The notes under the pieces: model-generated | What the model saw: the letters and a program-made list of their open reading frames with translations, nothing else | What the model was told of the DNA's origin: nothing | The model's database searches: none | Origin: an uncultured Candidatus Saccharibacteria bacterium | GTDB lineage: Bacteria > Patescibacteriota > Saccharimonadia > Saccharimonadales > CAYLGV01 | Length of the DNA stretch: 64,000 bases | NCBI GenBank assembly: GCA_964394925.1 | Contig: CAYMZG010000002.1 | Coordinates: 109,738-173,737 of the forward strand | Reading direction: 5' to 3' | Position numbers and translations under genes: made by a program | Shown here: piece after piece, positions 16,005-47,981 of the stretch | Numbering within the stretch: the first letter of the stretch is position 1 | Layout: every line of letters starts with the position of its first letter

Positions 16005-16012
16005 TCCGCTTG

Positions 16013-30942: not shown

Positions 30943-31065
30943 TGTCACGCCCTCGTCCACTACCTTGAGTAGGGGGTTTGCTATAGCCAATCAGGAAAGC
31001 CAAGAACGAATGTTCTTTTGGCGGCTTTCCGTACCCTACGAAGGGTAGTGGACGAGGGTGTGACA
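30943..31065 (+). repeat. hairpin-tip repeat element, copy 1 (core sense on + strand)
   Basis: Conserved core GGGGGTTTGCTATAGCCAATCAGGAAAGCCAAGAACGAATGTTCTTTTGGCGGCTTTCCGTACCCT. It is enclosed by 32-nt locus-specific arms (30943-30974 / 31034-31065) containing 2 G.U pairs and a tandem GA/AG internal loop. Confidence 0.9.
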
Positions 31066-31089
31066 AAACGTGTGAGCTATAATGTGGCT

Positions 31090-31764
31090 ATGGCGCGAAA
31101 AACGGTGAACCGTGAGGTGCTCGTTGCATTACTGGTTTCTAACCTGGTGACAGTGGTGCTGTTTTTGCTGCGCGTCATCGTTACGAAAGATACGCGTTAC
31201 TGGTTCTTATTCTGGAATTTATTACTGGCGTGGGTGCCGGTATTGCTTGCCGGGCTACTGGTGAAGCAACTGGCCAAACGTCGCTGGTCAGACCCCGTAC
31301 CGCTTTTACTGACAGTCCTTTGGTTAGCTTTTCTGCCAAACAGTTTTTACCTTATGAGTGATCTTATTCATTTGCAAAACACTGGTGAAATAGGCTTGTT
31401 GTATGATGCTGTGCTGTTTTTGTCATGCATTTGGAATGGGGTGGTGGCAGGCATGCTCAGCATTTACTGGGTACACATCGCATTATTGAAACGCCGAACG
31501 GCGCGTTTTGCGTGGGGCATTATTAGCGCCATATTTTTGCTTACCAGCATTGCCATTTACTTAGGGCGTAATTTACGATGGAATACTTGGGATATTCTGG
31601 CTAACCCAGCAGGGCTTTTGTTTGATGTCTCAGAACGCATCATAAATCCACTGGCTCACCCCCAAATTTTTGTTACATCATTGACCTTTTTTATCTTACT
31701 TACGAGCATGTATTACGTGATCTGGACGTTTGTCCGTGCCTTGCAGGTTAAACCCCGTCGCTAA
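31090..31764 (+). CDS. DUF1361-like integral membrane protein
   Basis: Start at ATG 31090; the track start at 31018 lies inside the repeat element. FLPNSFYLMSDLIHL motif. Confidence 0.65.
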   Translation: MARKTVNREVLVALLVSNLVTVVLFLLRVIVTKDTRYWFLFWNLLLAWVPVLLAGLLVKQLAKRRWSDPVPLLLTVLWLAFLPNSFYLMSDLIHLQNTGEIGLLYDAVLFLSCIWNGVVAGMLSIYWVHIALLKRRTARFAWGIISAIFLLTSIAIYLGRNLRWNTWDILANPAGLLFDVSERIINPLAHPQIFVTSLTFFILLTSMYYVIWTFVRALQVKPRR

Positions 31765-31782
31765 TCTGTTATTATTAGACGC

Positions 31783-33429
31783 ATGAAGGAGCAATTAATT
31801 GCTGCAATCACGACAGCAGGCAAGAGCCTATACGATGTCGAAGTTGACGTTAATTTAACGCGCCCCGAAGAGCAGTTCGGTGACTTTGCAACTAACGTTG
31901 CTCTACAACTTAGTAAACCAGTCGGTAAAAATCCTCGCGAGATAGCTGAGGCGATTGCGGCTGAGCTCAAAAAAACGTTGACCACACAAGTTAAAGACGT
32001 AACGGTGGCTGGCCCTGGATTTATCAACATTACGCTGATTGACGAAGCACTTGCCAATACAGCTTCTAACCGAACGCAGCCGTATAGTGGCAAAACCGTT
32101 GTTATTGAGACTAACAATCCTAACCCATTTAAGGCCATGCACATTGGGCACGCCTACAACGCTATTATGGCGGACACCCTAGCTAACCTGATTGAAGCAG
32201 GCGGTGCAACCACAAATCGTGTGAGTTATCACGGTGATGTGGGCTTGCATGTTGGGAAGAGTATGTACAGTTTGCTTCGGTATGTGGATGGTGACATATC
32301 CAAGCTAGAGGCCATACCTACTGAAGAGCGCAATAGCTTTATGTCGAAAATGTACGCGGAAGGTTCCAAGGCGTACAAAGAAGATGAGCAGGCCAAAACA
32401 GAGATTGATGCGCTTACCAAAGCATCGTTCACGCGTGAAGATCCGCTCTATGCGGCCGTGTACGACATATGTAAAGACTGGAGTTTTGCTGAACTCGATG
32501 CCATTGTGGCGCGCCTTAACAATAAGCCGACCGTCAAGCGTTTCTTGGAGAGTGAAGCCGATGGTCGTGGCGTGGCGATTGTTAAAAAGAATGTCCCCGA
32601 GGTGTTTTACGAAAGCGACGGTGCGTTGGTGTTTCCAGGCAGCAAGCATGGCAGCTTCGATAATGTGTTTGTCACCTCGAGAGGCTTAGGGCTATATGGT
32701 GCACGCGACCTTGGTCTCATGCAACTGAAGGACGAAGCGTTTCACGCTGAAAAAAGCTACATTGTGACTGCCGAAGAGCAGCGTGACTATTTTAAGGGTG
32801 TGATTGCCGCTGCCGAACTGTGTTTGCCTGAACTTCGCGGTGTAACAGTTAACATTTCGCACGGCACGGTTAAATTATCGACAGGCAAAATGAGTTCTCG
32901 TTCAGGTGATGTTATTGAAATTGCCTGGCTGTTTGACAGAATTGGCGAAGCAATCGCTGAGCGTGGTAGTACTCCCAACGATGAGTTAATTGCTGGCGCC
33001 CTGCGTTACCAATTCCTCAAAGTTCGCATCGGTGGTGATGTGGTGTTCGACATAGGTGAGTCGGTAAGTATTCAAGGTAATAGCGGTTCTTATTTGCAGT
33101 ATGCCCATGCTCGGGCGTGCTCGATTCTTGCCAAGGCAACAAACAGTAATGATGGTGCATTAAACGAACTTCAGCCAGATGAGCGTAGTTTGCTGCGAAA
33201 AATGAGTGAATATACCGAGGTGGTAGACCTGGCGATGGGTGAGCTCATGCCACATCATATTTGCACCTACCTCTATGAGTTAGCCCAGGTGTTTAATCGG
33301 TTCTATGAGCATAATCGGGTGCTCGAAGATGAGCGAGAGGCGATTCGGCTTGAACTTGTGCGCCGTTATGCGGCTATCCTGCGTGATGGCCTTGCGTTAT
33401 TAAACATTCCGACACCGGAGCGTTTGTAA
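31783..33429 (+). CDS. argS: arginine--tRNA ligase
   Basis: AMHIGHAYN (HIGH) motif, 548 aa, ArgRS-like anticodon-binding C-terminus. Confidence 0.9.
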   Translation: MKEQLIAAITTAGKSLYDVEVDVNLTRPEEQFGDFATNVALQLSKPVGKNPREIAEAIAAELKKTLTTQVKDVTVAGPGFINITLIDEALANTASNRTQPYSGKTVVIETNNPNPFKAMHIGHAYNAIMADTLANLIEAGGATTNRVSYHGDVGLHVGKSMYSLLRYVDGDISKLEAIPTEERNSFMSKMYAEGSKAYKEDEQAKTEIDALTKASFTREDPLYAAVYDICKDWSFAELDAIVARLNNKPTVKRFLESEADGRGVAIVKKNVPEVFYESDGALVFPGSKHGSFDNVFVTSRGLGLYGARDLGLMQLKDEAFHAEKSYIVTAEEQRDYFKGVIAAAELCLPELRGVTVNISHGTVKLSTGKMSSRSGDVIEIAWLFDRIGEAIAERGSTPNDELIAGALRYQFLKVRIGGDVVFDIGESVSIQGNSGSYLQYAHARACSILAKATNSNDGALNELQPDERSLLRKMSEYTEVVDLAMGELMPHHICTYLYELAQVFNRFYEHNRVLEDEREAIRLELVRRYAAILRDGLALLNIPTPERL

Positions 33430-33431
33430 CC

Positions 33432-34049
33432 GTGACGATTGTGTTTGACTTTGATGGCACCCTTGCCAACACCTACGGTATTGTATTGTCGTTATATAAC
33501 GCCGAGGCGGCTAACTATGGTTTACGAACTATTAGCGCTGAAGACTGGGAAGCAATCAGGCGCATGCGCTTTAGTGAAATGTTAAAGTTCGCCGGTATCA
33601 AACCGCACCAGGTGCCCAAGTACCTCACCATTGGTAAACAAATTTTAAAAGGGCACATTGAACAGATTGAACTCTTTGACGGCGTGGTTGATATGATCAA
33701 GCGTCTGAAAACAGCCGGTCATGACTTGTTCGTGTTGAGTAGTAATGCCGAGGATACCATTCAGGCAGTACTGGAACGGTACGGCTTGAGTGAGCTGAGT
33801 GTTATGAAGAGCTCAAAACTATTTGGCAAAGCCACTTCTCTAAAACGACTCGTGCGGGTTAATAAGTTGCAGCCAGATCAGGTATGGATGGTGGGCGATG
33901 AAGTGCGCGATGTGGTTGCTGCCAAAAAAGCCGGCATTCACGCCATGGCGGTCACCTGGGGTTTTCACCTAAAAGAGATGCTAGCTCCGGCCAAACCCGA
34001 TGCATATGCCGAAACGCCCGAACAGCTCACCGATTTTTTTGAGAAGTAA
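33432..34049 (+). CDS. HAD-superfamily hydrolase
   Basis: IVFDFDGTL motif I, VLSSN, GDEVRDVVAAKKAG. Confidence 0.8.
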   Translation: MTIVFDFDGTLANTYGIVLSLYNAEAANYGLRTISAEDWEAIRRMRFSEMLKFAGIKPHQVPKYLTIGKQILKGHIEQIELFDGVVDMIKRLKTAGHDLFVLSSNAEDTIQAVLERYGLSELSVMKSSKLFGKATSLKRLVRVNKLQPDQVWMVGDEVRDVVAAKKAGIHAMAVTWGFHLKEMLAPAKPDAYAETPEQLTDFFEK

Positions 34050-34050
34050 C

Positions 34051-34761
34051 ATGGTTGAAGAAATTCAAGACGCCTTAAAGCAAGTCTCCACTCCCGAGAA
34101 AGCTGCTAATTCAACACGTTTTTTTAAGTGTGGCCCAGGCCAATACGGTGAAGGCGATATGTTTATTGGTGTTACGGTGCCTGATCAGCGCAAGATTGCT
34201 CGAGCATATTTTCGCCCGATCCTTTTTAAAGATCTGAAGCGCCTGCTAAAAAGCCCGTGGCACGAAGGGCGTTTAACGGCGCTCCTCATGATGGTGATGA
34301 AGTTTCAAAGGGGCAATGAGGTGACGCGCCGAGCGCTGTTTGATCTGTATATGGACGAAATTGAACATATTAACAACTGGGACCTCGTAGATAGCTCAGC
34401 GCCGTACATTGTTGGACCGTGGCTGGAAGGGAACCCGTATAAAATGAAAGTGCTCAAGCGGCTAGCTCGCTCTGAGGTGTTGTGGGAGCGACGTATTGCC
34501 ATGCTGTCTACGTTTTACTACATCAACAAATGCAATCGTGCCGACGAAGCGCTGCAGATTATTACAATTTTGTTACACGATGAACATGATCTGATTCAAA
34601 AAGCCGTTGGTTGGATGCTCCGTGAAATTGGTAAACGGGTTGACGAGGCTGTTCTGTGCAACTTTCTAAACGAGCATGCGCACAACATGCCACGCACGGC
34701 TCTTCGGTACGCTATTGAACGTCTCACCCCCGAACAAAAAACATTGTATATGCATCAGTAG
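34051..34761 (+). CDS. DNA alkylation repair protein (AlkD-like HEAT-repeat family)
   Basis: FFKCGPGQYGEGDMFIGV and NNWDLVDSSAP motifs. Start at ATG 34051. Confidence 0.75.
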   Translation: MVEEIQDALKQVSTPEKAANSTRFFKCGPGQYGEGDMFIGVTVPDQRKIARAYFRPILFKDLKRLLKSPWHEGRLTALLMMVMKFQRGNEVTRRALFDLYMDEIEHINNWDLVDSSAPYIVGPWLEGNPYKMKVLKRLARSEVLWERRIAMLSTFYYINKCNRADEALQIITILLHDEHDLIQKAVGWMLREIGKRVDEAVLCNFLNEHAHNMPRTALRYAIERLTPEQKTLYMHQ

Positions 34762-34868
34762 TGTCCGTAAGCAGGGGGGTTTGCTATAGCCAATCAGGAA
34801 AGCCAAGAACGAATGTTCCTTTGGCGGCTTTTAAGTACCCTGCGTCGGATGCTGCTGATGCATATACA
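34745..34868 (+). repeat. hairpin-tip repeat element, copy 2 (core sense on + strand)
   Basis: Same core, with TTAA in place of TCC near the 3' end. The 23-bp arms are 34745-34767 / 34846-34868. The left arm covers the last five codons and the TAG stop of the upstream CDS. All three non-WC pairs are G.U on the + strand. Confidence 0.9.
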
Positions 34869-34903
34869 TTTGGCGAGAGTGCGCTACAATATGCGTAAGC
34901 ATT

Positions 34904-36391
34904 ATGAAAACAGCGTTACTCTTGTATCCTCACCAGCTTTATCCTGTGCATGAACTTCCCAAAGTCGACACGGTGGTCGTTATGGAAGATCCACTGTATT
35001 TTGGGCGCGACCAGCAATTTCCACTGCAGCTTCATAAACAAAAGCTCATCTTACATCGTGCGTCATTAAGGCGTTACGTTGAGGAAGTGCTCTGGCCGGC
35101 CGATCTGAAAGTTGAATACATCGACCTGGATGTCTTTATGCAAACAGGGGAAGTGCTCGACCGTGTTAAGGGCGCTGAGCAAATCTTTGTTATTGATCCA
35201 ACTGATGAAGTGTTGACGCGTCGTTTGCTACAGGCACGCCGTGAGCGCACCGACTTACCAAATCTGACCTTCCTGCCAAGCCCTAATTTCTATCTCAAGG
35301 AATCTGAGCTTCGCCAGTTCTTTAAAGAGAGTCACAAGCAACCGTTCGCGGACTTTTATCAGTGGCAGCGCGAGCGTTTCAATGTGCTAATTAGTGAAGA
35401 CTATAAGCCAATTGGTGGCAAGTGGTGTCTGGAGAGCGGCGCACCGCGAAAATTGCCTGCCGAGTTACAATTGCCGAGTTTTCCAGTCTTTGGCGATAAC
35501 TCCTTCGTGACTGATGCCACAAAATGGGTGAACGAACATTTTCCGGATAATCCCGGTAGTACCGATTTTATCTGGCCAACCAACCATGCCGAAGCAGTCG
35601 AGTGGCTTAATGATTTCGTAACAAATCGCCTCGATAGTTATGCTGACTATGCTGCCACGATTGATCCTCGTTCGCCGTGGCTATTCCACAGCCTACTCGC
35701 TAGTAGCGTGAACATTGGCTTACTAACACCTCAACAGATTGTCCAGGCTGCTATTGATCAACATAACAAACAAGCAGTACCACTCGAGAGTCTTGAACTG
35801 TTTATTCGCCAGGTGCTTGGCTGGCGCGAATTTACGCGTGGCCAGTACCTCACTGACGCCCACGAGCTACGAAGCCACAATCCATATGGCCATAAACGCA
35901 AGTTAACTGCCAAGTGGTACCAGGGGACAACGGGGATCCCGCCGTTCGACGACCTTGTTAAAAAACTGCTCGCCCACAGTTATGCCTACCAAGCCGAGCA
36001 ACGCAATGTAGCCGCCAATCTTATGCTGCTGTGTGAAATTCATCCAGATGAGATACAGCGTTGGTTTAGCGAATTATGCCTCGACAGTTACGACTGGACG
36101 GTTGTACCGGCAGTCTATGGGGAGCAGCTGTTCGCTGGCGGGAGCACAGATGGCGTACCGCCCATTAGCCCCAGCGCTGACCTAATGGAAATGAGCCCCT
36201 ACACGCATGATATTTGGGCCGATGTATGGGATGGTCTCTTTTGGCGCTTCGTCGAGAAGCACCAAACAGCCCTCGGTAAAAATCCGCACACTCGACACTG
36301 GGTAGGGCAGCTAAAGAGACTTGATGACAACTACCGACGCATTGTGCATTACCGTGCCGAAGATTTCCTGAATCAGTACACGACGTTATAG
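34904..36391 (+). CDS. cryptochrome/photolyase-family protein (photolyase-related, COG3046-like)
   Basis: 495 aa with LGWREF and C-terminal photolyase-like helices. Confidence 0.7.
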   Translation: MKTALLLYPHQLYPVHELPKVDTVVVMEDPLYFGRDQQFPLQLHKQKLILHRASLRRYVEEVLWPADLKVEYIDLDVFMQTGEVLDRVKGAEQIFVIDPTDEVLTRRLLQARRERTDLPNLTFLPSPNFYLKESELRQFFKESHKQPFADFYQWQRERFNVLISEDYKPIGGKWCLESGAPRKLPAELQLPSFPVFGDNSFVTDATKWVNEHFPDNPGSTDFIWPTNHAEAVEWLNDFVTNRLDSYADYAATIDPRSPWLFHSLLASSVNIGLLTPQQIVQAAIDQHNKQAVPLESLELFIRQVLGWREFTRGQYLTDAHELRSHNPYGHKRKLTAKWYQGTTGIPPFDDLVKKLLAHSYAYQAEQRNVAANLMLLCEIHPDEIQRWFSELCLDSYDWTVVPAVYGEQLFAGGSTDGVPPISPSADLMEMSPYTHDIWADVWDGLFWRFVEKHQTALGKNPHTRHWVGQLKRLDDNYRRIVHYRAEDFLNQYTTL

Positions 36392-36464
36392 CGTACCACG
36401 CAGATATTGACAATTGGCAAGAAATGATACAATAGTAGCCTACGTAATGGAGTAGGACTGGTTC

Positions 36465-36893
36465 ATGGCAGAAGCTAAGAAGACAACCAAGAAGAAACGT
36501 ATTCAGAAGAGTGATGACGGCATGATCGTAACACTGCCGACAGTTAAAGTACCTGGCTGGCTGGAAGGGTTCGTGAGTTTTGTACGCGAACAGGGTGTTG
36601 TCGGCCTCGCCGTTGGTCTTATCCTGGGTGTAGCCGCAAAGTCGGTGATCGACTCACTTGTTAATAACATTTTTAATCCGATCATCGGCTTATTGTACGG
36701 TGGTGGTGACTTCAGTACGAAATACATCTGTTTAAAGCAAGAAATGCAGAATGGCAGCTTGGCTTGCACCAGCAAGCTTGGCTACGGCAGTTTCATTAAC
36801 ACGCTCATCAGCTTCATGATTGTGGCAGCTGTTGTGTATTTTGTGGTGAAAATCTTACGTCTCGACAAGCTTGATAAGAAAAAAGACTCTTAG
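36465..36893 (+). CDS. mscL: large-conductance mechanosensitive channel
   Basis: FVREQGVVGLAVGLILGVAAKSVIDSLVNNIFNPIIG is typical of MscL TM1. 142 aa. Confidence 0.85.
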   Translation: MAEAKKTTKKKRIQKSDDGMIVTLPTVKVPGWLEGFVSFVREQGVVGLAVGLILGVAAKSVIDSLVNNIFNPIIGLLYGGGDFSTKYICLKQEMQNGSLACTSKLGYGSFINTLISFMIVAAVVYFVVKILRLDKLDKKKDS

Positions 36894-36922
36894 ACCCCCT
36901 GAATTTTCGGTATAATAAAGGT

Positions 36923-37021
36923 ATGCAACTAAGTGATGAGGAGTGGCGTCATAAACTCACGCCCGAGCAGTATCGTGTGCTTTGTGAACAGGGAACTGAA
37001 GCCAGGGAGACCAAGGCTTGA
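36923..37021 (+). pseudogene. msrB: N-terminal remnant of methionine sulfoxide reductase B (32 codons)
   Basis: MQLSDEEWRHKLTPEQYRVLCEQGTE matches the conserved MsrB N-terminus, then diverges and stops. TATAAT at 36911-36916. Its TGA overlaps the next ATG (TGATG). Confidence 0.55.
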
Positions 37022-38520
37022 TGGACGACGATCTACGTAATCGATTCCGATCCACGCGCTCGTCTCGCCCCGAACCATATGGTTACGGAAGGCCAACTCG
37101 ACCCGCGCCAAGGCGGACTCCCCCCAAGGCACCGCAACAGCCTGCTCCTAAACCAGTGAAGCCAGTACAAGCACCGCCTCCCAAGCCTAGCCCCGTTGCT
37201 CCTGTGCTCGCCCCTAAGCCCGCCGTAAGTCTCCCATCATACACCCCTGACACTTCTGAAAAATTTGACCTAAAACCAGCGCCCACTAAGAAAATACACC
37301 AAAAAAAGAAGCGTAGTAAAAAGAAGATTCTTATTATTTCATTAATTATCTTACTCATTGGCTTGGCAGGTGCAGGTGGTTATTGGTTCTATGCCAAATC
37401 AAAGAATAAACAGCCCGTTGCGAGCAATCAGCAATCTACTACCCCAACAGACTCCAGCCCACAGCGTAGTGGCACCATAAAGATGGTGGCCGTTGGTGAT
37501 AGCCTCGCGTTCGACTCACTCACTAACGCTGCAAAAAAACCAGACGGCTCATACGATTACGCGCCAATGATGTCTAACTTTACGCCGTACTTCCAAAAGG
37601 CTGATGTTCGGGTATGTAATGAGTCTTCGCCTGGTGGTGGTGAAGCCGATGGCCTCTCCCTCAGCGGTTACCCAACGTTTAACGCTCCACTGGGCTGGAA
37701 CACGAGCTTTGCTACGGCTGGATGTAATGTTATGAATCTGGCCAGTGAACACACTAATGACAAGGGTCAAACAGCTATCAATAACATGTTAAAAAGCTGG
37801 AGCGAGCAGAAGAATATTTTGGCAACAGCTGGGGCAAACAGCAGCACCGACGAGCAAAGCAAAGTCCGCTACTTTACTGTTAAAGATGTTACGTTTGCCT
37901 ATCTGGCATACACTACCACGAGTGCTAACAAAGACGGGCAGCCATACGGCGTAAACATCTATAGCGATAACTTGGCAGACCAACAGATTGGTGAGGCACG
38001 CAAGAAGGCTAACCTAGTAATTGTGAGCATAAACTGGGGATCAGAGAATGGCGTCGATATTTCACCCGAACAGGATAAGATTGCTCAACATTTGGCCGAC
38101 CAAAATGCAGATGTAGTCTTGGGTGGCGGCCCCCGTGTATTGCAACCGGTCAAGGTTTTGAGTGGCAAAAGTGGCCATCAATCACTTGTGTGGTTCTCAC
38201 TCGGCAACTTCCTTAACTCCATGACTGGCGCAAATAATCTGGTAGGCGGCATGGCAATCATGGAATTTGATGCCAATTCATTAAAACTTAATGATCCAAA
38301 ACTTATGCCGGTCTACATGCACTACGAATGGACGGCGCAACAAAAGGCCTCAAATAATGTGGCTGCCCGAACAAACTTCAAGCTGTACCCACTCGATCAG
38401 GCAGAGCCACTGTTACCAAAGTCACAGCTTAATACTTCTGTTGCAGCTCTAACAAGCCAAGCTTCGGCTACAATCACGAAATTTGCCCCCATCAAAATAA
38501 TCACCAGCTCAGAATATTAA
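37021..38520 (+). CDS. CapA/PGA_cap-family metallophosphatase-like protein with Pro-rich N-terminus and TM anchor
   Basis: MVAVGDSL, NLASEHTND and SINWGSEN motifs after a TM helix. Confidence 0.65.
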   Translation: MDDDLRNRFRSTRSSRPEPYGYGRPTRPAPRRTPPKAPQQPAPKPVKPVQAPPPKPSPVAPVLAPKPAVSLPSYTPDTSEKFDLKPAPTKKIHQKKKRSKKKILIISLIILLIGLAGAGGYWFYAKSKNKQPVASNQQSTTPTDSSPQRSGTIKMVAVGDSLAFDSLTNAAKKPDGSYDYAPMMSNFTPYFQKADVRVCNESSPGGGEADGLSLSGYPTFNAPLGWNTSFATAGCNVMNLASEHTNDKGQTAINNMLKSWSEQKNILATAGANSSTDEQSKVRYFTVKDVTFAYLAYTTTSANKDGQPYGVNIYSDNLADQQIGEARKKANLVIVSINWGSENGVDISPEQDKIAQHLADQNADVVLGGGPRVLQPVKVLSGKSGHQSLVWFSLGNFLNSMTGANNLVGGMAIMEFDANSLKLNDPKLMPVYMHYEWTAQQKASNNVAARTNFKLYPLDQAEPLLPKSQLNTSVAALTSQASATITKFAPIKIITSSEY

Positions 38521-38629
38521 CCCCAGCTTATTTATCCCAGGGTACGGAAAGCCGCCAAAGGAACATTCGTTCTTGGCTTTCCTGATTGGCTATAGCAAAC
38601 CCCCTGGGATAAATAAGCTGGGGTTAATA
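38515..38629 (-). repeat. hairpin-tip repeat element, copy 3 (core sense on - strand)
   Basis: The core is in reverse orientation. It is enclosed by a perfect 28-bp inverted repeat (38515-38542 / 38602-38629) that includes the last codon TAT and the TAA stop of the upstream CDS. Confidence 0.9.
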
Positions 38630-38657
38630 CAGAACATGTGGGGTATAATCGGGGCAT

Positions 38658-39221
38658 ATGAGTGACAAACAATACGTTCCAAAGAAGCTACTCTGGGTTG
38701 ACCTAGAGATGACCGGCCTTGACCCAAAAGAAGATGTTATTTTAGAGGTTGCCGCCGAGATTACCGACATAAACTTTCAGACCCTGGCGAGTTATGAGGC
38801 ACGCCTCAAACAAGATCATGACACTGTTGTAAAGCGCATGCAGGCGAACATCTGGTGGAAGGAATTTCCAGCAAACCGTGACCAGTTTATTGAGAAGCTC
38901 GATGAAGGCAAAGCTCCTGAGGTGGTGGAGCAGGAATTAGTTGCGCTTGTTAAGGAGCAATTTGGCGACGACTTGGCCGTTCTGGCAGGCAACTCTATTC
39001 ATAATGACCGAAGTTTTATCTCGCAGTGGATGCCAAATCTTGATTTGCTGCTGCACTACCGCATGCTTGATGTGTCGAGCTGGAAGCTGGTTATGCAAAG
39101 TCGCTATCAAGTACAGTTTGAAAAGCCCGATGTCCACCGTGCCTTCGATGATATTCAAGCCAGCATCGCCGAACTTGATTTTTACCTCGATTGGTTCAAG
39201 AAGCACCAGGATAGTAATTGA
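38658..39221 (+). CDS. orn: oligoribonuclease
   Basis: LLWVDLEMTGLDP, GNSIHNDRSFI and HYRMLDVSS motifs. Confidence 0.9.
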   Translation: MSDKQYVPKKLLWVDLEMTGLDPKEDVILEVAAEITDINFQTLASYEARLKQDHDTVVKRMQANIWWKEFPANRDQFIEKLDEGKAPEVVEQELVALVKEQFGDDLAVLAGNSIHNDRSFISQWMPNLDLLLHYRMLDVSSWKLVMQSRYQVQFEKPDVHRAFDDIQASIAELDFYLDWFKKHQDSN

Positions 39222-39566
39222 ATGGATCATAAAACAGTTGAGACATATGTGCTCAGTATGCCCAATGCCCAGCTGACATATCCATTTGGTGAAGGGGTTG
39301 CTGTGTATAAGGTGAACGATAAAATGTTTGCGCTCATTCAGGAGGGGCGCGAGCCAGTTCGCATCAGTCTTAAGTGCGACCCACAGCTTTCAAAACTACT
39401 TCGAGAACGGTACGAGACGGTTATGGAGGGCTATCATCTAAATAAAAAACACTGGAATACTGTGTTGTTGAGTGGCCAACTCCCCTGGGAGGATATCCAG
39501 GGGCTCATTCGGCACAGCTATGATTTAGTGGCGGGCATAGACGAGGCAGTACCAACTATTGACTAG
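39222..39566 (+). CDS. MmcQ/YjbR-family DNA-binding protein
   Basis: YPFGEGVAVYKVNDKMFALI ... KHWNTV. Confidence 0.75.
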   Translation: MDHKTVETYVLSMPNAQLTYPFGEGVAVYKVNDKMFALIQEGREPVRISLKCDPQLSKLLRERYETVMEGYHLNKKHWNTVLLSGQLPWEDIQGLIRHSYDLVAGIDEAVPTID

Positions 39567-40215: not shown

Positions 40216-40307
40216 ATAGGTGAACGGGGGTCTGGTAAAGTGGCTTATGCTGATCAAACAGATAAGAATAGCTGGACAGAGGCGTTACCACCTGCCAAAC
40301 TTGTGGT

Positions 40308-42065
40308 ATGGATGCGGTAGAGGACATAAAAGCACGGTTGGCAATCGAGGATGTCGTGAGTGAATATGTGCAGTTAAAACGGGCTGGCCGAAACTTTAAA
40401 GGCCTCAGTCCATTTAATGAAGAGAAGACGCCAAGCTTTGTGGTGAGCCCCGAAAAACAGATATGGCATGACTTTAGCTCGGGCAAGGGTGGCAACATGT
40501 TTAGCTTTGTTATGGAGATGGAGGGTGTTGATTTTCGGGGTGCTATGGAGCTGCTGGCACGTAAGGCGGGCATTGACCTCGACCAATACCAAGGGCGAAC
40601 TCGCAGTAACACGAAACTCAAAGCACGCCTACACGATGCGCTTGAGGCGGCTGCTCATTTTTACCAGGTGCAATTTAGCAAGAACAAGACAGCCCTCGAA
40701 TATGTGCTGGGCAAACGGCAGTTTGCTAAAGACACCGCATTATTGTTCCGATTAGGCTATGCTCCGAATAACGGTACTGCCTTAATCGACTTTCTGAAGA
40801 AAAAAGGCTTTACCGAGAAAGAACTACAGCAAGCGGGTCTAACTGCCAGGCGCTATAACGGTATAGGAGACATGTTCCGTGGTCGTTTGATGATTCCCCT
40901 ACAAGACCCGCAGGGGCAGGTGATTGGTTTTACGGCGCGCCTGCTCGACGACGACCCAAACGCCCCAAAATACATCAATACGCCCCAAACGGTGTTGTAC
41001 GACAAGTCGCGCCATGTATACGGACTGCATTTGGCGAAAGATAAGATTCGTCGTGAAGGTTTTGCAGTTTTGACCGAAGGAAACCTGGATGTGATTGCCA
41101 GTCACCAAACGGGCGTGACCAACGTGGTGGCAACGGCAGGCACGGCACTCACTGAGCCACATTTGAAAAGCATTGGGCGCTTCGCGGGTGACATTCGCTT
41201 GGCCTTTGATGCTGATAAGGCTGGACTGGCTGCTACCGAGCGTGCCATTCCAATTGCCAGTAAAGTTAACGTTTCATTAAGTATTATTAGTATTCCCGAG
41301 GGCAAAGACCCCGATGAGTTAATTCGCAATAACCCCGTTTTATGGGAAGAGGCGATTAGCCAACCGCAATATGCTTTGGACTGGCTGATTGATCGTTATC
41401 AGGCTCAGCTCGATCTCTCCACCGGGCAGGGTAAACGACGATTCAGTGACGTCTTACTCCCAACAGTACGAGGTTTGCAAGACCCGGTTGAGCAGGATCA
41501 TTATCTTCAGCAGATCGCTCGGTTAACAGGGGTGCGCGTTGAAGCGCTCGAAACCAAACTTGGTACCGAAGATGCACCCAAACGATTGCGTAAGCGCGTG
41601 CCAGCTAATAACATACAGCTCGATCAGCAGCAACTAGAGTGGGCTAAGGCACAAGATCATTTGCTGGCTATCACGCTTATGCGGCCGGCCACGCGTGATT
41701 TACTCGATATTGTAGATCCGGAGATGCTGCCGCAAGAAACAGGTCGCATACTGTTAAATTACCTCGAGGCTCACCCAGATTTTGATGGTAACCTACAGCA
41801 CGCCCCACTTTTGCGTGAAATTGCCGACTATGTTAAAATAATCGCATTACAGTACGAGGCGTTATTTATAGATTTAGATGAGCACGAAGCGCGCTACGAA
41901 GGCAATCGGCTCAGGATCCGCCTAATTGATACATATGTAAAAATCAAAAAAGCTCAAATAGCAGAGGCCCTCCAGACGAGTGATGACGACCTGTCACGGC
42001 AGTTACTTGCCCAAGTCAAAGCGCTCGATATGCTTCTCAAAAAAGGCCAAGAACAGCTAAGTTAA
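40308..42065 (+). CDS. dnaG: DNA primase
   Basis: EEKTPSFVV zinc-binding-domain scaffold, TOPRIM region (EGNLDV, DADKAGLAAT), 585 aa. Confidence 0.9.
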   Translation: MDAVEDIKARLAIEDVVSEYVQLKRAGRNFKGLSPFNEEKTPSFVVSPEKQIWHDFSSGKGGNMFSFVMEMEGVDFRGAMELLARKAGIDLDQYQGRTRSNTKLKARLHDALEAAAHFYQVQFSKNKTALEYVLGKRQFAKDTALLFRLGYAPNNGTALIDFLKKKGFTEKELQQAGLTARRYNGIGDMFRGRLMIPLQDPQGQVIGFTARLLDDDPNAPKYINTPQTVLYDKSRHVYGLHLAKDKIRREGFAVLTEGNLDVIASHQTGVTNVVATAGTALTEPHLKSIGRFAGDIRLAFDADKAGLAATERAIPIASKVNVSLSIISIPEGKDPDELIRNNPVLWEEAISQPQYALDWLIDRYQAQLDLSTGQGKRRFSDVLLPTVRGLQDPVEQDHYLQQIARLTGVRVEALETKLGTEDAPKRLRKRVPANNIQLDQQQLEWAKAQDHLLAITLMRPATRDLLDIVDPEMLPQETGRILLNYLEAHPDFDGNLQHAPLLREIADYVKIIALQYEALFIDLDEHEARYEGNRLRIRLIDTYVKIKKAQIAEALQTSDDDLSRQLLAQVKALDMLLKKGQEQLS

Positions 42066-42085
42066 TCTCTTTATAAGGAGTACGA

Positions 42086-43222
42086 ATGGTAGCAAAAGCA
42101 AAGACCAAAGCAGCGCCAGCTGCGCCAGCGCCCGATGAAGGCATGGTAGCTATAAAAGACGAGTTGGTTACCAAGGCCAAGGCGGCCGCCAAGATTGATC
42201 AAAAAGTAATAAATGCTGCGATTCCCGATGTGCCAGAAAACGCCGAGATTCTTGATCAGCTATACACAGAGCTTGCCGATGGTAACATCGAGATTACTGG
42301 CGCTCCTGAACCGACTGTTGATTTTACCGATGAATGGGCTGCCGAAGACGACGAGGAAATCGTTATTGACGAAAAAATGTATCTCGACGATATTGCCGAC
42401 GACTCTGTTCGTTTGTACCTGCGTGAAATTGGTAAAATACCTCTGTTAACCGCAGAAGAAGAGCTTGAACTTGCGCAGCGCGTGGTAGCGGGTGACAAGC
42501 GTGCCAAAGACCAAATGGCCGAGGCTAACATGCGTTTGGTGGTATCGATTGCCAAGCGTTACGTTGGTCGTGGACTTGATCTTCTCGACCTCATTCAAGA
42601 GGGCAACACGGGTCTACTTCGTGCGGTTGAGAAGTTCGACCCTGACAAAGGCTTTAAGTTTTCGACCTATGCTACCTGGTGGATTCGCCAGGCCATTACA
42701 CGTGCTATCGCTGACCAAGCCCGTACCATCCGTATTCCGGTGCACATGGTGGAAACCATCAACAAGTTGCTGCGTACGCAGCGCCGCTTAACCCAGGAAC
42801 TCAACCGCGAACCAACCAACGAAGAAATTGCCAAAGCGATGGAAATCGACGTTGAAAAAGTTGAACACATCATGAAGATCAAACAGGATATTTCCTCGCT
42901 CGATGCTTCAGTGCGTGATGACGAAGAAGACTCAGTGCTGGCTGACTTTATTGAAGACGAAGATACTATTAGCCCTGAAGAATCGGCGACCAACCAGCTT
43001 TTGAAAGAGCATGTTAAAGATATGCTCGGTGCGCTTACCGAACGAGAACAAAAAATACTCAAACTGCGTTTTGGTCTAGAAGACGGCAAAAGCCACACGC
43101 TCGAAGAAGTAGGTCAGGAGTTCAGTGTGACACGTGAGCGCATTCGTCAAATCGAAGCCAAGGCCCTTGCTAAGCTTCGCAAGCACAAAGACGCAAAGAA
43201 ACTCCACGACTATATTAAGTAG
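42086..43222 (+). CDS. rpoD: primary RNA polymerase sigma factor
   Basis: YLREIG, region 2 ([26 protein letters not shown]) and region 4 ([24 protein letters not shown]). Confidence 0.95.
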
Positions 43223-43258
43223 TGCAGTGAACGGTTACTTCGAGGTACAATACAATTG

Positions 43259-43864
43259 ATGAGAATTATTGGAATTGGCGGATTACCACGTAGCGGCAAG
43301 GATGCACTTGCCGAGTTGTTTATGAAAGACGGCTACTTTGGTATCTCATTCGGCGACGTAGTACGTGGTTTTTCATATGAGCGCCATAAAGATAAGCCGG
43401 ATCCTATCTCTGTTGAGAACATGACTGAAACCTCTAACTGGCTCCGTGAGACTCGTGGGTCAGACGTTATTCTGCAAGAGGCTTTGAAGGCGTTTGAAAA
43501 GGCACAAGCCGAAGGCGGTAATTATAAGGGGCTGTTACTTTGGAGCGTGCGTGCACCCGTTGAAGTCGACTGGATACTGGCTCACCATGGTGGCTTGGTT
43601 TGGATTGAAGCTGATCCTGAGGTGCGTCACGAACGCTGGCTGAAGCATCTGCGCGAAGGTGAGATGCCAGTTTCACTCGAAGATTTTACCCAACAGGAAA
43701 TGCTCCAATGGAAACCACAACCAGGCATACCTGAGGCGGTGCAAATGAACATCGCATACGTAAAAGAAAAAGCCACCTTCACGCTCGTTAATAATGAGGA
43801 TGGTTACGAGACTTTCCTGGATAAAGCCAAGGCTCTGGCTAAAACAATCGAGGCCCAGAAGTAG
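43259..43864 (+). CDS. P-loop nucleoside/nucleotide kinase-like protein
   Basis: IGIGGLPRSGKD Walker A-like motif. About 200 aa. Confidence 0.5.
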   Translation: MRIIGIGGLPRSGKDALAELFMKDGYFGISFGDVVRGFSYERHKDKPDPISVENMTETSNWLRETRGSDVILQEALKAFEKAQAEGGNYKGLLLWSVRAPVEVDWILAHHGGLVWIEADPEVRHERWLKHLREGEMPVSLEDFTQQEMLQWKPQPGIPEAVQMNIAYVKEKATFTLVNNEDGYETFLDKAKALAKTIEAQK

Positions 43865-43867
43865 CTT

Positions 43868-44968
43868 ATGGATAAGGCTGTAAGTAACATTGGTGCATTC
43901 AGCACACAATTAGATCAATACAAGCGGCTCATCGACAATGACCTCAAAACCTACAGCAAACATGTGCAAAAAAGCACCCTGCAAAAATACGGTGCAAACG
44001 CTCGTTTAGAAACTGACATTTTCTTAAGCATCCTTGATCGTGGCGGCAAGCGTATCCGTGGCGCGTTGGTATTACTTGGTTATGAAATGTCCGGTGGCAA
44101 GAACCAGGCAATGGCTTTGCAAGCAGCTCGAGCAATTGAAATGCTGCACGCTTATATTTTGATGATTGATGACATTCAAGACCGCTCAGTGCTGCGACGC
44201 GGCGGCCCCACTGCTCACATTATGCTGGCTGATTATCACCGCAAGCATCAGCTGGCTGATGATCCGGACCATTTTGGTATTGCCATGACCATGAACTCAG
44301 CTCTCGCAGGCGCCCATGCTGCACAAGTTATTCTGGCAAACCTCGATACGTCTGAAGAAATCCGATTAAAGGTCATTTCAATTACCAATCAAACGATGAT
44401 GATCACCGCTCACGGCCAAACCGACGACATTATGAATGAAGTTGTTGCCGAAGTAACTGATGACGACATTCGCCGTGTACTAGAATGGAAAACAGCACAC
44501 TATACGTTTTTGAACCCGTTGCATGTGGGGATGGTGCTGGCTGGTGCTGATTGCCATGCCACCGATGCTATTACTGAATATGCTATGCAAGCTGGTATGG
44601 CCTTTCAGATTACCGACGACATTGTTGGTGTGTTTGGCAGCGAAGAAGAGACAGGTAAATCATCAATGGACGATATTCGCGAAGGTAAGCGAACCATGCT
44701 CATGGCCTATGCCCTTGATCATGCTGAGGCAGCCGACAAAAACTTCTTGATTCAAATGCTTGGCAACCAGCAGTTAACACCAGCAGAATTTGACCGCTGC
44801 AAAGCCATTTTGGTTGATACGGGTGCGTTGGCATATGCCAAGAAAACAGCCGCTGATCACATTACGCGTGCCCAAGCTTCGTTGAGCAAAGAAGCTGACC
44901 GTTGGTCTGAGCAAGGTGTGCAGTTCCTGAACGGCTTGGCCGAGTACCTGTTAGAGCGGACCAAGTAA
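43868..44968 (+). CDS. polyprenyl diphosphate synthase
   Basis: First and second Asp-rich motifs, MIDDIQD and ITDDIVG. Confidence 0.85.
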   Translation: MDKAVSNIGAFSTQLDQYKRLIDNDLKTYSKHVQKSTLQKYGANARLETDIFLSILDRGGKRIRGALVLLGYEMSGGKNQAMALQAARAIEMLHAYILMIDDIQDRSVLRRGGPTAHIMLADYHRKHQLADDPDHFGIAMTMNSALAGAHAAQVILANLDTSEEIRLKVISITNQTMMITAHGQTDDIMNEVVAEVTDDDIRRVLEWKTAHYTFLNPLHVGMVLAGADCHATDAITEYAMQAGMAFQITDDIVGVFGSEEETGKSSMDDIREGKRTMLMAYALDHAEAADKNFLIQMLGNQQLTPAEFDRCKAILVDTGALAYAKKTAADHITRAQASLSKEADRWSEQGVQFLNGLAEYLLERTK

Positions 44969-47788
44969 GTCTGAGTTGTTCGTTGCTTGAGCCTTGAGCA
45001 TGGTTAGAACGTGTTCACGAGTATGATGATTATTGGCATAGCGCTGTATCTCACGGATGAGTACAAACAAGATGGCTGCGCCAAACGCATAGGCCCAGTC
45101 GACTGCGCTTAACGGGCCTGCCCCAAAGTAGGTGTTAATTATCGGGTTGTAGATAATGTTTAGAACGCAGAACATTGATGCTGCCATGGCAACTGCCAGT
45201 GCGCGGTTATGAAGTTGGTAACGTGTGAATAAACCGCGCCGCGAGCGTCGCTGCAAAATATTCAGTAATTGGCAAAGCACAATGGTGAGGTAGGTAAGGG
45301 CTGTTGCTTTGGCGTACAGGGCAGGGTTGTTGATGTTTACATTTGCCGCCTCAACACCGTTACGGCTGAAGAACAACATAAAGTTTATGAAGGCAAAACC
45401 ACCGATTAAAATACCGCACCAGAGCAGGTCGGTGATGCTGAAACGATTCAAAATATGATCATGCTGATCGCGTGGTTTGTCGCCCATCAGTTCGCCGTCG
45501 GCTTGATCCCAGCCCAAGGCTGCAATCGGGAAGAGCTCGGCTATCATGTCGATGGCCAAGATTTCCATAACCGTTAGGCTCAGTGGCACATGGAACGCTG
45601 CCAGAACCACGAAACTAACCAGGTTAACCACAAGTTCTGCCGAGTTACTCGTAAAGCAACTCAGCGTTGCTTTTTTGATGTTTTGGAAGATTACACGACC
45701 TTGCTGAATCGCTCCAACCAGGGTAGAGAAGCTGTCGTCGAGTAGCACAATCTCGGCCGATTGTTTAGCTACATCGGTACCCGTGCGGCCCATGGCTACA
45801 CCTATGTCAGCGCGCTTGAGAGCCGGCGCATCGTTAATGCCGTCACCCGTTACAGCTACGACTTTTTCGTTGGCTTTTACCAGACCAACAATACGAAGCT
45901 TGTCTTCTGGGCTCACGCGACTAAAGATCACACCACCCCTGGTAGCGAGGCGTAATACTCTGGCATCATCGAGTTGTCGGAGTTCCTCGCCACTTACCAC
46001 AATGATGTCCTGACCGGGTTTTGCCAGGCCGGCTCGTTTAGCAATAGCTTCTGCAGTAAGGGCAAAATCTCCAGTTACAATCGAAATGTTAATGTGTGCA
46101 TCATGAGCTGCTTTCATGGCTGCTGGTACTTCGTCGCGTAGCGGATCAACCATGCCAACCATGCCTAGCCAGGTGAGCCCCGTCTCGGCTTCTTCCATAG
46201 TGAGTTTCTTAAGATTAGTGCCTTTCGGAAGAACCTTATAAGCATAGCCAAGGTTTCGCGAAGCTTGTTTAGCCCACTTGTGGTTCAGGCGATCGATCAT
46301 GTCTCGGTCGGTTTGCGTCATTTTGCGGTCGCGCTGGCTGAGCCAGAGCTTATTACAGCGGTGCAAAATGCTTTCGGGTGCGCCTTTTACAAAGATATAA
46401 TGCTCGCCATTCTTGCCAAATGAACGCACAGAGCTCATGCGTTTTCGAGCAGAGTCAAAAGCAAACTCCTTGAGCTCAGGCGATTGTTCGTCTAGGATCT
46501 TAGGATCAAGACCAGCTTTTTGCGTGAGTGTCAGTAGCGCTCCCTCAGTTGGATCGCCAACCACATACCACACGGCGTGTTCATCATCTGGGGGGCTCAC
46601 GGTAGCATTACTAGCAAAAGCGCCCGCCGAGAAGAACAACGAGAAATTCTCCAGTTCTTTGGCGCTCAGACTCTTGCCGTGTCGGTTGGTAATGGTTCCG
46701 TTTGGTTCGTAACCAGTGCCGTTTACGCCAAAAACCGAATTGCCAATTAATAGGCGTTCAACAGTCATTTGGTTTTTGGTTAAGGTGCCGGTTTTATCGG
46801 TACAAATAACTTTGGTGGCCCCAAGTGTTTCTACGGCCGATAGTTTTTTAACCAAAGCACGGGCTTTGGCAAGTTTGCTGGCGGCTCGGGCCAGGGCAGT
46901 GTTAATTTCGGCTGGCAAGCCTTGTGGAATGAGTGAACTGGCAATTGCAATAGCGTAGAGGAAGGCGTTCTTAATGCCAAGCCCGAGGTAAATGCTGGCA
47001 GGGAGCAGGAACAAACAGAGAAAAACGGTGCCTTGTGTTACACGCCCGGCAATATGATTCAACTCGCGCTGCAAGGGGCTAACGTCTGCCGTGGTGTCGG
47101 CGCTCAGCGAGGCAATGCGCCCAAGTTCGGTCTGCATGCCAGTGGCCATGGCAACACCAAAGCCGTGACCGGTTGCCACTGTGGTGCCCATAAATACCAA
47201 GTTGTGACGGTTGGCGAGCTCCACATTACCGCTCATGGGATGCGTAAATTTTCGCGTGGGGTTTGATTCGCCGGTTAACGCAAAGTCATTGGTAGAAAGT
47301 TCCGACTCTGTGAGCAAGCGCAAGTCAGTTGGAACACTGTCACCCTCTTCTATATATACTATGTCACCCGGCACTAGTTCGCTGGCGGCTACCGTTACGA
47401 TAGTGCCATTGCGGCGTACTTTGGCTTCGGCAACCACTAATCGCTCGAGGCTTTCCATCAGCTTCTCGGCTTTATATTCCTGCGAAAAGCCAATGATGGT
47501 GTTGAACATGACAAGGGCCAACAGGACCACCGCAGTATGAGAGTCACCGAGTAGCAGACTGATCACCACACTGACAAGCAGCAAAACAATCATTAAATCC
47601 TTAAACTGACGAGCGTATTTATGAAACGCGCTCTCGCGGTTTAGCTCTTGTAACTTATTTGGACCGTATTGCTCGAGTCGTTTATGGGCTTCGGCTGGCG
47701 CCAAGCCATGTTGAAGATCAGACCCTAACTCTTTGAGAACTGTCTTTGTATCTTGTCGGTAATAGGCTAGTTGTTTATCGCCCACCAT
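44951..47788 (-). CDS. cation-transporting P-type ATPase (P2-type-like)
   Basis: CTDKTGTLT phosphorylation motif, TGES, GDGINDAP, 945 aa with about 10 TM helices. Confidence 0.9.
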   Translation of the reverse strand: MVGDKQLAYYRQDTKTVLKELGSDLQHGLAPAEAHKRLEQYGPNKLQELNRESAFHKYARQFKDLMIVLLLVSVVISLLLGDSHTAVVLLALVMFNTIIGFSQEYKAEKLMESLERLVVAEAKVRRNGTIVTVAASELVPGDIVYIEEGDSVPTDLRLLTESELSTNDFALTGESNPTRKFTHPMSGNVELANRHNLVFMGTTVATGHGFGVAMATGMQTELGRIASLSADTTADVSPLQRELNHIAGRVTQGTVFLCLFLLPASIYLGLGIKNAFLYAIAIASSLIPQGLPAEINTALARAASKLAKARALVKKLSAVETLGATKVICTDKTGTLTKNQMTVERLLIGNSVFGVNGTGYEPNGTITNRHGKSLSAKELENFSLFFSAGAFASNATVSPPDDEHAVWYVVGDPTEGALLTLTQKAGLDPKILDEQSPELKEFAFDSARKRMSSVRSFGKNGEHYIFVKGAPESILHRCNKLWLSQRDRKMTQTDRDMIDRLNHKWAKQASRNLGYAYKVLPKGTNLKKLTMEEAETGLTWLGMVGMVDPLRDEVPAAMKAAHDAHINISIVTGDFALTAEAIAKRAGLAKPGQDIIVVSGEELRQLDDARVLRLATRGGVIFSRVSPEDKLRIVGLVKANEKVVAVTGDGINDAPALKRADIGVAMGRTGTDVAKQSAEIVLLDDSFSTLVGAIQQGRVIFQNIKKATLSCFTSNSAELVVNLVSFVVLAAFHVPLSLTVMEILAIDMIAELFPIAALGWDQADGELMGDKPRDQHDHILNRFSITDLLWCGILIGGFAFINFMLFFSRNGVEAANVNINNPALYAKATALTYLTIVLCQLLNILQRRSRRGLFTRYQLHNRALAVAMAASMFCVLNIIYNPIINTYFGAGPLSAVDWAYAFGAAILFVLIREIQRYANNHHTREHVLTMLKAQATNNSDLLGPL

Positions 47789-47816
47789 ATTACGCTTAAG
47801 TATACGCTAAGTTCAT

Positions 47817-47932
47817 GGCTTGAAACACCCCTTGGCTTGGAGGGTACTTATAAGCCGCCAAAGGAACATACGTTCTTGGCTTTCCTGATTGGCAATAGCA
47901 AACCCCCTCCAATCCAAGAGGTGATTCAAGCC
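47817..47932 (-). repeat. hairpin-tip repeat element, copy 4 (core sense on - strand)
   Basis: Reverse-oriented core with three substitutions. The 28-nt arms (47817-47844 / 47905-47932) have 3 mismatches. It lies between the divergent P-type ATPase and polA genes. Confidence 0.9.
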
Positions 47933-47981
47933 AGCCTGTTTACATAAACATAAGAGTAATAGGTAGCGTATACTGTAAATA

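Follow-up and report, generated by a model that had tools for sequence, protein, structure and literature searches.

What kind of repeat keeps its centre constant and takes new ends at every locus? The question is raised by a 64-kb stretch of contig CAYMZG010000002.1 (GenBank assembly GCA_964394925.1; this whole stretch of 64,000 nt is called the window below) from an uncultured Candidatus Saccharibacteria bacterium, in which four intergenic copies of a 65-66-nt core stand at the tips of long hairpins whose arms differ from locus to locus. A first, sequence-only reading had picked out these copies and recognised no described family in them. We conclude that they belong to a genuine repeat family, not produced by chance and so far undescribed, whose architecture is the reverse of that of miniature inverted-repeat transposable elements (MITEs) and repetitive extragenic palindromic (REP) elements. 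The explanation we favour is a new, lineage-restricted family of interspersed conserved-tip hairpins in one genus-level clade of Candidatus Saccharibacteria, and we put this full explanation, which includes an action of the core as RNA, at a probability of roughly 0.4. We hold its descriptive part with considerable confidence: a structured core, local arms maintained by template switching, vertical inheritance with flips, cores evolving in concert, and gain and loss of whole hairpins. Saccharibacteria and other bacteria of the Candidate Phyla Radiation (CPR) have very small genomes and few known non-coding elements.

Four copies of one core

All four copies lie where the sequence-only reading had placed them, at 30943-31065 (+), 34745-34868 (+), 38515-38629 (-) and 47817-47932 (-). 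The 22-mer GCCAATCAGGAAAGCCAAGAAC has exactly four exact occurrences in the window (+, +, -, -) and none in 100 shuffles. A covariance model built from 10 copies (R1), run over the whole window with filters off, returned the same four at 88-107 bits and nothing else above 17 bits; hidden degenerate copies are therefore absent from these 64 kb. We drew the boundaries so that the arms are 25-30 nt and the core, from GGGGG to GTACCC, is 65-66 nt. Whole units measure 115-124 nt, and their folding energies are -59 to -80 kcal/mol (z-scores -7 to -11). The inverted repeats enclosing the four cores are 32, 23, 28 and 25 nt long and unrelated between loci, in agreement with the 23-32 bp first described; that of copy 4 extends to 57 nt at 75% complementarity. 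Distances between copies are 3.7-9.2 kb, with housekeeping genes in between.

The layout of the core was likewise as first given, including the 3-4-nt spacer and the GTACCC end: its sequence runs GGGGGTTTGCTAT(A/T)GCC...GGCTT, spacer, GTACCC. It comprises a GGG/CCC closing stem, a 7-8-bp helix GGAAAGCC/GGCUUUCC around a GAAC/GUUC hairpin, and the invariant motifs CUAUAG and UUUGGCG.

The nearest DNA and protein matches of the window are Candidatus Saccharibacteria/Saccharimonadales assemblies, which bears out an initial guess at a small, streamlined genome. We gathered syntenic contigs of relatives (given as L numbers below) through AlkD and PolA homologues; these are genus-level relatives, with PolA 82-91% and AlkD 75-89% identical to the window. 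The copies lie in a syntenic region of housekeeping genes, namely those for a CDP-alcohol phosphatidyltransferase, a DUF1361 protein and a photolyase-related protein, argS, alkD, the PGA_cap gene, the gene of an RNase T-like exonuclease, dnaG, rpoD, a P-type ATPase gene and polA. A prophage or island context, suspected from a step in GC content at ~10 kb, is out, since the copies sit among argS, dnaG, rpoD and polA. A scan of a genome collection with the exact core pattern added three copies, each with new arms, in a Saccharibacteria metagenome-assembled genome (MAG), and the same core with unrelated arms also stands in Logan, ENA and JGI contigs. The termini are thus as unconserved at other loci and in other genomes as they had appeared to be within the window.

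Conservation and folding of the core

Ten cores of the type found in the window (family A), from at least five species, are 85-98% identical (mean 92%), and orthologous cores at the alkD locus (site 2; sites are numbered after the window copies) are 89-97% identical. Adjacent to the element, four-fold degenerate sites of alkD are 15-43% identical, that is, saturated. Variation in the core is limited to the loop of the GAAC/GUUC hairpin, 2 nt on its 3' side, the 3-4-nt spacer before GTACCC and rare single changes. The element appears to be under selection, and the signs of selection or active maintenance seem clear. The hairpin loop reads GAAT in copies 1-3 and GTAT in copy 4, and always AATT in the copies of other genomes, including orthologous site-2 copies in four other species. 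Because this window-specific loop stands at all four loci against AATT at orthologous sites elsewhere, the comparison indicates concerted evolution of the cores inside a genome. A TT(T/A)TAAG spacer variant is also common to copies 2 and 4, despite their unrelated arms.

A second subfamily of cores (family B), found in L012 and L022, scores 24-27 bits with the family-A covariance model and aligns to the same structure; nhmmer with a family-A profile failed to detect it. Here the helix reads GGAAAAC/GUUUUCC or GGGAAAC/GUUUUCC, so that the two families differ by one G:C to A:U double change, and all one-sided changes produce G:U pairs on the sense strand. Family B keeps CUAUAG, UUUGGCG and (U)UUCCGU(A)CCC and has lost the AGCCAA repeats. 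The proposal that two GCCAA segments compete for one TTGGC does not carry over to these cores; what is conserved is the 7-8-bp helix. Since pairing has been kept by compensatory change while the AGCCAA repeats have been lost, the comparison points to a core that would behave as a folded single strand and not as a duplex binding site.

The duplex alternative holds that the element is a DNA or cruciform site for a protein between transcription units, with a nucleoid, topological or insulator role in which orientation is irrelevant. It would account well for a core conserved in both orientations, even between sister species, for strictly intergenic positions at gene ends or exactly between divergent promoters, and for the nested palindromes in the core (GCTATAGC, GAACAATTGTTC, GGAAAGCC...GGCTTTCC). 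We nevertheless regard it as improbable, given the behaviour of family B just described; moreover, a 65-nt unpaired centre would, on general grounds, disfavour cruciform extrusion, and no candidate protein is known.

Contig L022 adds a further feature. Its family-B core lies within an inner arm (CTGC-GA-CGG) that carries family-A cores in five other species, and the same contig has a family-A core at site 1, so that two subfamilies occur together in one genome. Because a family-B core occupies inner arms that elsewhere hold family-A cores, it seems that one core can take the place of another while the hairpin persists.

Arms of local origin

Arms at six loci have no sequence in common beyond chance 10-11-mers, and only A-GGG...CCC-T, across the two core boundaries, is common to all. 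There are two exceptions: an 8-nt stretch, CACTACCT, in the window and L022 at site 1, and a GTA-core-TACG inner motif in several copies. Cut-and-paste of whole hairpins, for which arms shared across loci would be expected, was rejected, as apart from these two short motifs the shared k-mers are at chance level.

The origin of the arms is most readily followed at site 2. In all filled lineages the gene-side outer arm consists of the last alkD codons and the stop, and the opposite arm is an inverted copy of them. The pairs read TGTATATGCATCAGTAG / CTGCTGATGCATATACA in the window, TATATGCATAGGTAG / CTACCTATGCATATA in L028, ATGAGCTAG / CTAGCTCAT in L027, ATGAATGTCTGA / TCAGACATTCAT in L002 and TGAAC / GTTCA in L012. 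They track the lineage-specific C-terminal codons and stops (HQ-stop, HR-stop, S-stop, NV-stop and K-stop); substitutions, like a 3-nt indel, have their counterpart in the opposite arm. The Y-M codons of alkD are conserved even in element-free relatives, so it is the non-coding arm that is the copy. At site 3, TATTAA is mirrored by TTAATA. In L018, where site 2 is empty, CATATACA directly after the stop codon equals the outer end of the distal arm of the window and L028 type; for this reason the site is best read as a probable deletion derivative.

In seven of nine hairpins the stem is interrupted 3-6 bp below the core, by a mismatch or an internal loop. Ordinary terminators of the genome combine a GC-rich stem of 17-20 bp with a loop of 2-6 nt and A/T tracts, and the element arms do not resemble them. 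An intrinsic terminator was rejected for the element itself: the loop is 65 nt, there is no consistent U-tract, and all that a terminator scan reported were small sub-hairpins inside copy 4. We likewise rejected the idea that the arms are acquired or guide sequences, there being no match to them elsewhere in the window or in relatives and none for three arm patterns in IMG/VR, a weak test given exact 19-mers and the poor sampling of Saccharibacteria phages.

Might a parasitic core instead insert into the apical loops of long hairpins, such as terminators, that were already there? Short or imperfect inverted repeats do pre-exist at three sites (the promoters of sites 1 and 4; in L018, TACATG...CATATA on either side of the alkD stop), and the family-B core of L022 in arms used by family A could be read in the same way. 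Against this, the 23-32-bp arms, or any long palindrome, are present at no empty orthologous site in any relative examined, and besides the element hairpins there are no long inverted repeats with a 30-95-nt loop in ~100 kb of relatives. The arms also differ from ordinary terminators, as noted above. Loop insertion, which the sequence-only reading had itself named as the account that pre-existing arms at empty sites would call for, is thus largely refuted and very improbable.

Palindromy is also seen outside the hairpins. Divergent promoter pairs are quasi-palindromic (window 47788-47844 / 47905-47961; L018 ~2800-2845), and at 6961-7014 of L012 two -10 boxes and their leaders form a perfect 22-bp inverted repeat. 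The elements of sites 1 and 4 stand at the centre of such quasi-palindromic promoter symmetry. These observations point to a general tendency of these genomes to form palindromes by template switching.

Inversion of the tip at the alkD locus

The inner arms at site 2 read CCG-TAA-GYAG on the 5' side of a sense core and CTRC-GT-CGG on its 3' side, and they always turn with the core, whereas the outer arms keep to their flanks when tip orientation differs. That orientation differs between the window and L028 on one side and L019, L027 and L002 on the other, and thus even between the sisters L028 (sense) and L002 (antisense). Given these differences across lineages, the tip, meaning core and inner arms, must have been inverted at least two or three times, by exchange within the outer arms. 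Assemblies within a lineage agree on one orientation (six assemblies, L012-L017, and three, L019-L021), and the inversion accordingly looks like an evolutionary event and not rapid phase variation.

The same agreement bears on the idea of an inverton, an invertible promoter switch driving phase variation of the flanking genes. A tip flanked by inverted repeats and inverted between species is what such a switch would look like. Yet no sequence in the core makes a convincing promoter (the final T, which is conserved, is missing from TATAGC), the flanking genes have their promoters beyond the hairpin, no invertase is encoded nearby, and the locus-specific arms are unlike the recombinase-recognised repeats of invertons. 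We give this idea next to no likelihood.

Template switching between inverted repeats, as described in the passages drawn on here, leads to arm homogenisation, arm expansion and spacer inversion (PMC8604942, PMC13100816, PMC8794818). All three signatures are also observed at site 2, in its series of seven filled lineages. Template switching may thus both maintain and extend the arms; the pattern is observed and the mechanism inferred. Those passages treat a single-locus mutational process and give no account of a 65-nt spacer that is conserved across species and common to many loci (PMC8794818, PMC8604942, PMC13100816).

Gain and loss at orthologous sites

Each of sites 1-4 is filled in some lineages and empty in others. 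Site 1 is occupied in the window (sense) and in L022 (antisense, with the contig starting inside the core), and empty in L011, L012, L018 and the MAG. Site 2, filled in seven lineages, carries a family-A core in sense orientation in the window and L028 and in antisense orientation in L019/L021, L027 and L002; L012 and L022 have a family-B core, and L011 and L018 are empty. Site 3 is occupied in the window and empty in L011 and L012. Site 4 is occupied in the window and in the WANG18 lineage (L020 and L029), there with unrelated arms and the opposite core orientation, and empty in L023, L026 and L025. The loci L001 and L003, found in the MAG only, have no orthologues in the window or relatives.

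At site 4, alignment with the three empty alleles extends along the flanks up to 6-7 nt from the base of the hairpin. Taking out the 116-nt hairpin leaves a 13-nt spacer, compared with 10 and 13 nt in L023 and L026. No direct target-site duplication was found in the flanks of the four window copies when compared with empty sites; instead, at sites 2 and 3, an outer arm is an inverted copy of the flank. The data fit both insertion of a core with inverted copying of one flank and insertion of a whole hairpin, and the two cannot be separated because intergenic spacers are unalignable at this divergence.

Polymorphism of this kind is what purely selfish, non-autonomous MITE-like DNA would produce, the core being a cis-site of a transposase or recombinase encoded elsewhere and its conservation a product of mobility and gene conversion. 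Occupancy of four out of four sites in the window against none of four in the L011/L023 genome, with PolA 91% identical, suits this explanation, as do the filling of site 4 in two lineages with unrelated arms and opposite core orientations, the coexistence of both subfamilies in L022, the breaking of contigs inside cores (L022 at both ends, L029) and the lack of a tie to any gene function. We still think it rather unlikely. Terminal inverted repeats common to all copies, which mark a MITE, are missing, as is direct target-site duplication. No element-linked transposase lies in the syntenic region, the sole transposase of the window being an ISL3 fragment in an unrelated GC-rich island, and no candidate for a parent autonomous insertion sequence (IS) was seen in 64 kb of this genome and ~130 kb of relatives. 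Orthologous site-2 copies are, besides, as similar as stated above despite neutral saturation; dead MITE copies would need constant conversion to remain so.

A more radical possibility is that the core alone is mobile and makes its own arms, and that it also represents a new CPR class of small RNA on an RNase III-type stalk. Once the core is joined to a target, its complementary ends (GGGGG...CCC) would snap back and prime copying of ~25-30 nt of adjacent target, and an inverted target-site duplication would result. To our knowledge, inverted target-site duplication has not been described as an insertion signature for any IS or MITE. We consider this combination a long shot; if true, core-alone insertion with self-primed inverted target duplication would be categorically new.

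Two observations concern assembly and distribution. In L020 (1080-1240; an ENA scaffold), the alkD-side half of site 2 is joined through the shared core to the ATPase-side flank of site 4, which reflects an exchange by homologous recombination between two dispersed cores or else a chimera made in assembly at the 66-nt repeat. A metagenome scan with an exact core 19-mer gave seven matches, all due to chance, in a collection that is incomplete. The true distribution of the element is wider than our scans show, because the JGI contig L028, reached by another route, carries the core; rarity is not claimable.

Comparison with known families

The sequence-only reading had set the element apart from MITEs, IS, REP elements and CRISPR repeats, and the contrast holds. 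At the gathering threshold, the only Rfam match in the window is a tRNA-Ser; at E<=10, copy 1 gave three sub-threshold chance matches of 13-17 bits against thresholds of 70-100. The core had no match in phage and plasmid collections (BLAST) or in IMG/VR (pattern scan), and a published description of such an element was not found in the full-text literature. A known RNA or MITE family was rejected on these results.

MITE-like repeats such as Correia/NEMIS of Neisseria, ERIC, RUP and Nezha are alike in being intergenic, multi-copy, ~100-150 bp in length and built as long hairpins. They, too, vary in presence and absence between close relatives and often stand at gene ends or by promoters. They differ in that their terminal inverted repeats are conserved and a direct target duplication (e.g., TA) is made; here the termini are unique to the locus and the centre is conserved. 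REP elements, bacterial interspersed mosaic elements (BIMEs) and REPINs, including BIME-1/RIP with its central integration host factor (IHF) motif between inverted REPs, are intergenic hairpins in which a central motif is sometimes conserved. REP elements are known to affect mRNA ends and to bind proteins. Their arms, however, are a conserved unit recognised by a REP-associated tyrosine transposase (RAYT), their loops vary and their copies number hundreds. In our data there is neither a REP-like arm consensus nor a RAYT (no Y1/HUH transposase domain in Pfam scans); it is the arms that vary and the centre that stays constant.

The TIGR-Tas stem arrays found in CPR bacteria (PMC12045711) resemble the element in having hairpin units with conserved and variable RNA segments. 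TIGR units form tandem arrays next to a tas gene, with variable spacers in the loop, flanked by box C/D motifs (PMC12045711). The copies described here are, by contrast, dispersed among housekeeping genes, the conserved part is the loop, and the variable parts pair with each other. We rejected TIGR-Tas arrays on architecture, and no Nop-domain gene lies near the copies. CRISPR or TIGR arrays in general were discarded as well, with no tandem array, copies 3.7-9.2 kb apart and arms unmatched in IMG/VR. In architecture the element also matches the RNase III stalks of rRNA precursors, where a variable stem of >20 bp is constrained only in its pairing and lies under a conserved structured RNA. This is pure analogy, the element being known here from DNA sequence alone.

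Weighing a proposed RNA module on a local stalk

In the explanation we favour, the conserved unit would be the 65-66-nt core, a structured module that is selected or actively spreading. The arms would not be part of the repeat; they would be local to each locus, built and maintained there, and at gene 3' ends one arm would consist of the gene's last codons and stop and the other of their inverted copy. An established hairpin would be inherited vertically, with template switching in the hairpin, or arm-arm recombination, keeping the arms paired, extending them outward and occasionally flipping the tip. Cores would stay near-constant across species and be homogenised among copies in one genome, and whole hairpins would be gained and lost at intergenic sites. 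The core may act as a folded single strand, most likely as an RNA module on any transcript that crosses it, and the long perfect stem may be an RNase III-type processing or protective stalk, by analogy with the presentation of rRNA.

That the core is a folded RNA module is a tentative claim, to which we give somewhat less than even odds. It is favoured because compensatory and G:U changes on one strand have kept the pairing intact, because nearly every core nucleotide is constrained, and because all the stems exceed 22 bp, as a stalk of the RNase III type must.

Several findings weigh against this explanation. Orientation is the chief difficulty. The core is retained whichever way it faces relative to the flanking genes, and at three loci it stands between divergent promoters. 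This suits a cis-acting RNA poorly, and the RNA interpretation then requires transcription of either strand. Such transcription is conceivable, since all copies are found 2-30 nt behind a -10 box or after a gene. Folding energies of the sense and antisense strands differ by +13 to -4 kcal/mol depending on the copy, with no strand consistently favoured, and strand assignment by folding energy was rejected as inconsistent between copies. Covariation in the core comes from two family-B sequences, in an alignment fitted to the model. Wobble pairs in the site-2 arms favour the gene-sense strand whatever the orientation of the core, which a mutational strand bias could also explain. For the inner 12-25 bp of each arm no source was detectable in the window, in relatives or in IMG/VR, and the restored spacer length at site 4 is equally expected from insertion of a complete hairpin.

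Genomic context and coordinates

The copies occupy two types of site. Copies 1 and 4, and L001 of the related MAG, lie between divergent promoters; copy 1 has the -10 box of the CDP-alcohol phosphatidyltransferase gene (-) on one side and that of the DUF1361 gene (+) on the other. Copies 2 and 3 directly follow a gene, whose stop codon (TAG of alkD, TAA of the PGA_cap gene) falls inside the stem base, and at L003 of the MAG the hairpin begins ~10 nt past the stop codon of its gene. Core orientation relative to neighbouring genes is inconsistent. Coordinates are collected in Table 1.

Table 1. Arms and cores of the four hairpins in the window.
Feature	Position	Strand	Details
Copy 1, 5' arm (29 nt)	30943-30971	+	pairs with 31037-31065; two G:T wobbles, tandem G.A mismatch
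Copy 1, core, family A (65 nt)	30972-31036	+	covariance-model match 103 bits
Copy 1, 3' arm (29 nt)	31037-31065	+	ends 12 nt before TATAAT box of DUF1361 gene (31078-31083)
Copy 2, 5' arm (30 nt)	34745-34774	+	outer 17 nt are last alkD codons (L Y M H Q) and TAG stop (34759-34761)
Copy 2, core (66 nt; 3' spacer variant TTTTAAG)	34775-34840	+	covariance-model match 88 bits
Copy 2, 3' arm (28 nt)	34841-34868	+	outer part is inverted copy of alkD end; final hexamer TATACA scores as -35-like box for downstream gene
Copy 3, 5' arm (25 nt; perfect stem)	38605-38629	-	ends 14 nt from TATAAT box of RNase T-like gene
Copy 3, core (65 nt), antisense to both flanking genes	38540-38604	-	covariance-model match 107 bits
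Copy 3, 3' arm (25 nt)	38515-38539	-	holds last two codons and TAA stop (38518-38520) of + strand PGA_cap gene
Copy 4, 5' arm (25 nt)	47908-47932	-	between divergent promoters of P-type ATPase (-) and polA (+)
Copy 4, core (66 nt; CTATTG, GTAT loop and TTATAAG spacer variants)	47842-47907	-	covariance-model match 88 bits
Copy 4, 3' arm (25 nt)	47817-47841	-	whole 116-nt hairpin missing from three relatives

Some features of the window stand apart from the element. At several gene starts (31078-31092, 38644-38660, 47963-47984 and others), -10 boxes (TATAAT, TACAAT, TATACT) lie just 6-13 nt upstream of the ATG and a Shine-Dalgarno sequence is not visible; the short distance and the missing ribosome-binding motif therefore suggest that mRNAs in this clade may be largely leaderless. 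The gene msrB (SelR) stands between mscL and the PGA_cap gene in L011 (12753-13169) and L012 (13567-13983); it is missing from the window, which has a 124-nt gap in its place (36893-37018). Cumulative GC skew has its minimum at ~16000-20000 of the window, and genes are mixed or on the minus strand before and almost uniformly on the plus strand from 19.9 kb. A replication origin near 16000-20000 is compatible with this; no dnaA was seen in the window.

Positions 1-9600, separate from the element copies, form a GC-rich segment (0.56-0.63 vs. 0.47-0.52 elsewhere). It carries the ISL3 transposase fragment (7-870), an N4/N6 DNA methylase gene (6037-6927, -), a gene for a SmaI-like restriction endonuclease (7074-7883, +) and several further open reading frames with no Pfam match. 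One of its proteins is found on the same 213-kb NCBI contig and also in a Logan assembly. The segment has the look of an island acquired by horizontal transfer, or perhaps of a chimeric join. At the GC junction lies tRNA-Ser(CGA) (9676-9765), whose last ~19 nt (ATCCCTCCCCTTCCGCCA) are directly repeated at 9921-9938, ~155 nt downstream, in a manner that resembles the att scar of an integrative element. An imperfect 35-nt inverted repeat (9748-9782 / 9786-9820) overlaps the 3' end of this tRNA gene.

Implications

Bacterial interspersed repeats have been catalogued by their conserved ends, so that an element with a conserved centre and locus-made ends would escape both MITE and REP finders; Rfam does not hold this one. 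In practice, metagenome assemblies break at the element, and chimeric joins in this clade may stem from it. The alkD locus offers a natural phylogenetic series for the evolution of hairpins by template switching, with arms that copy coding sequence and a tip that is repeatedly inverted. For Saccharibacteria, a 65-nt sequence that stays 85-98% identical while synonymous sites are saturated would be a functional signal of a new sort, in RNA or DNA, or else a new kind of persistent genomic parasite.

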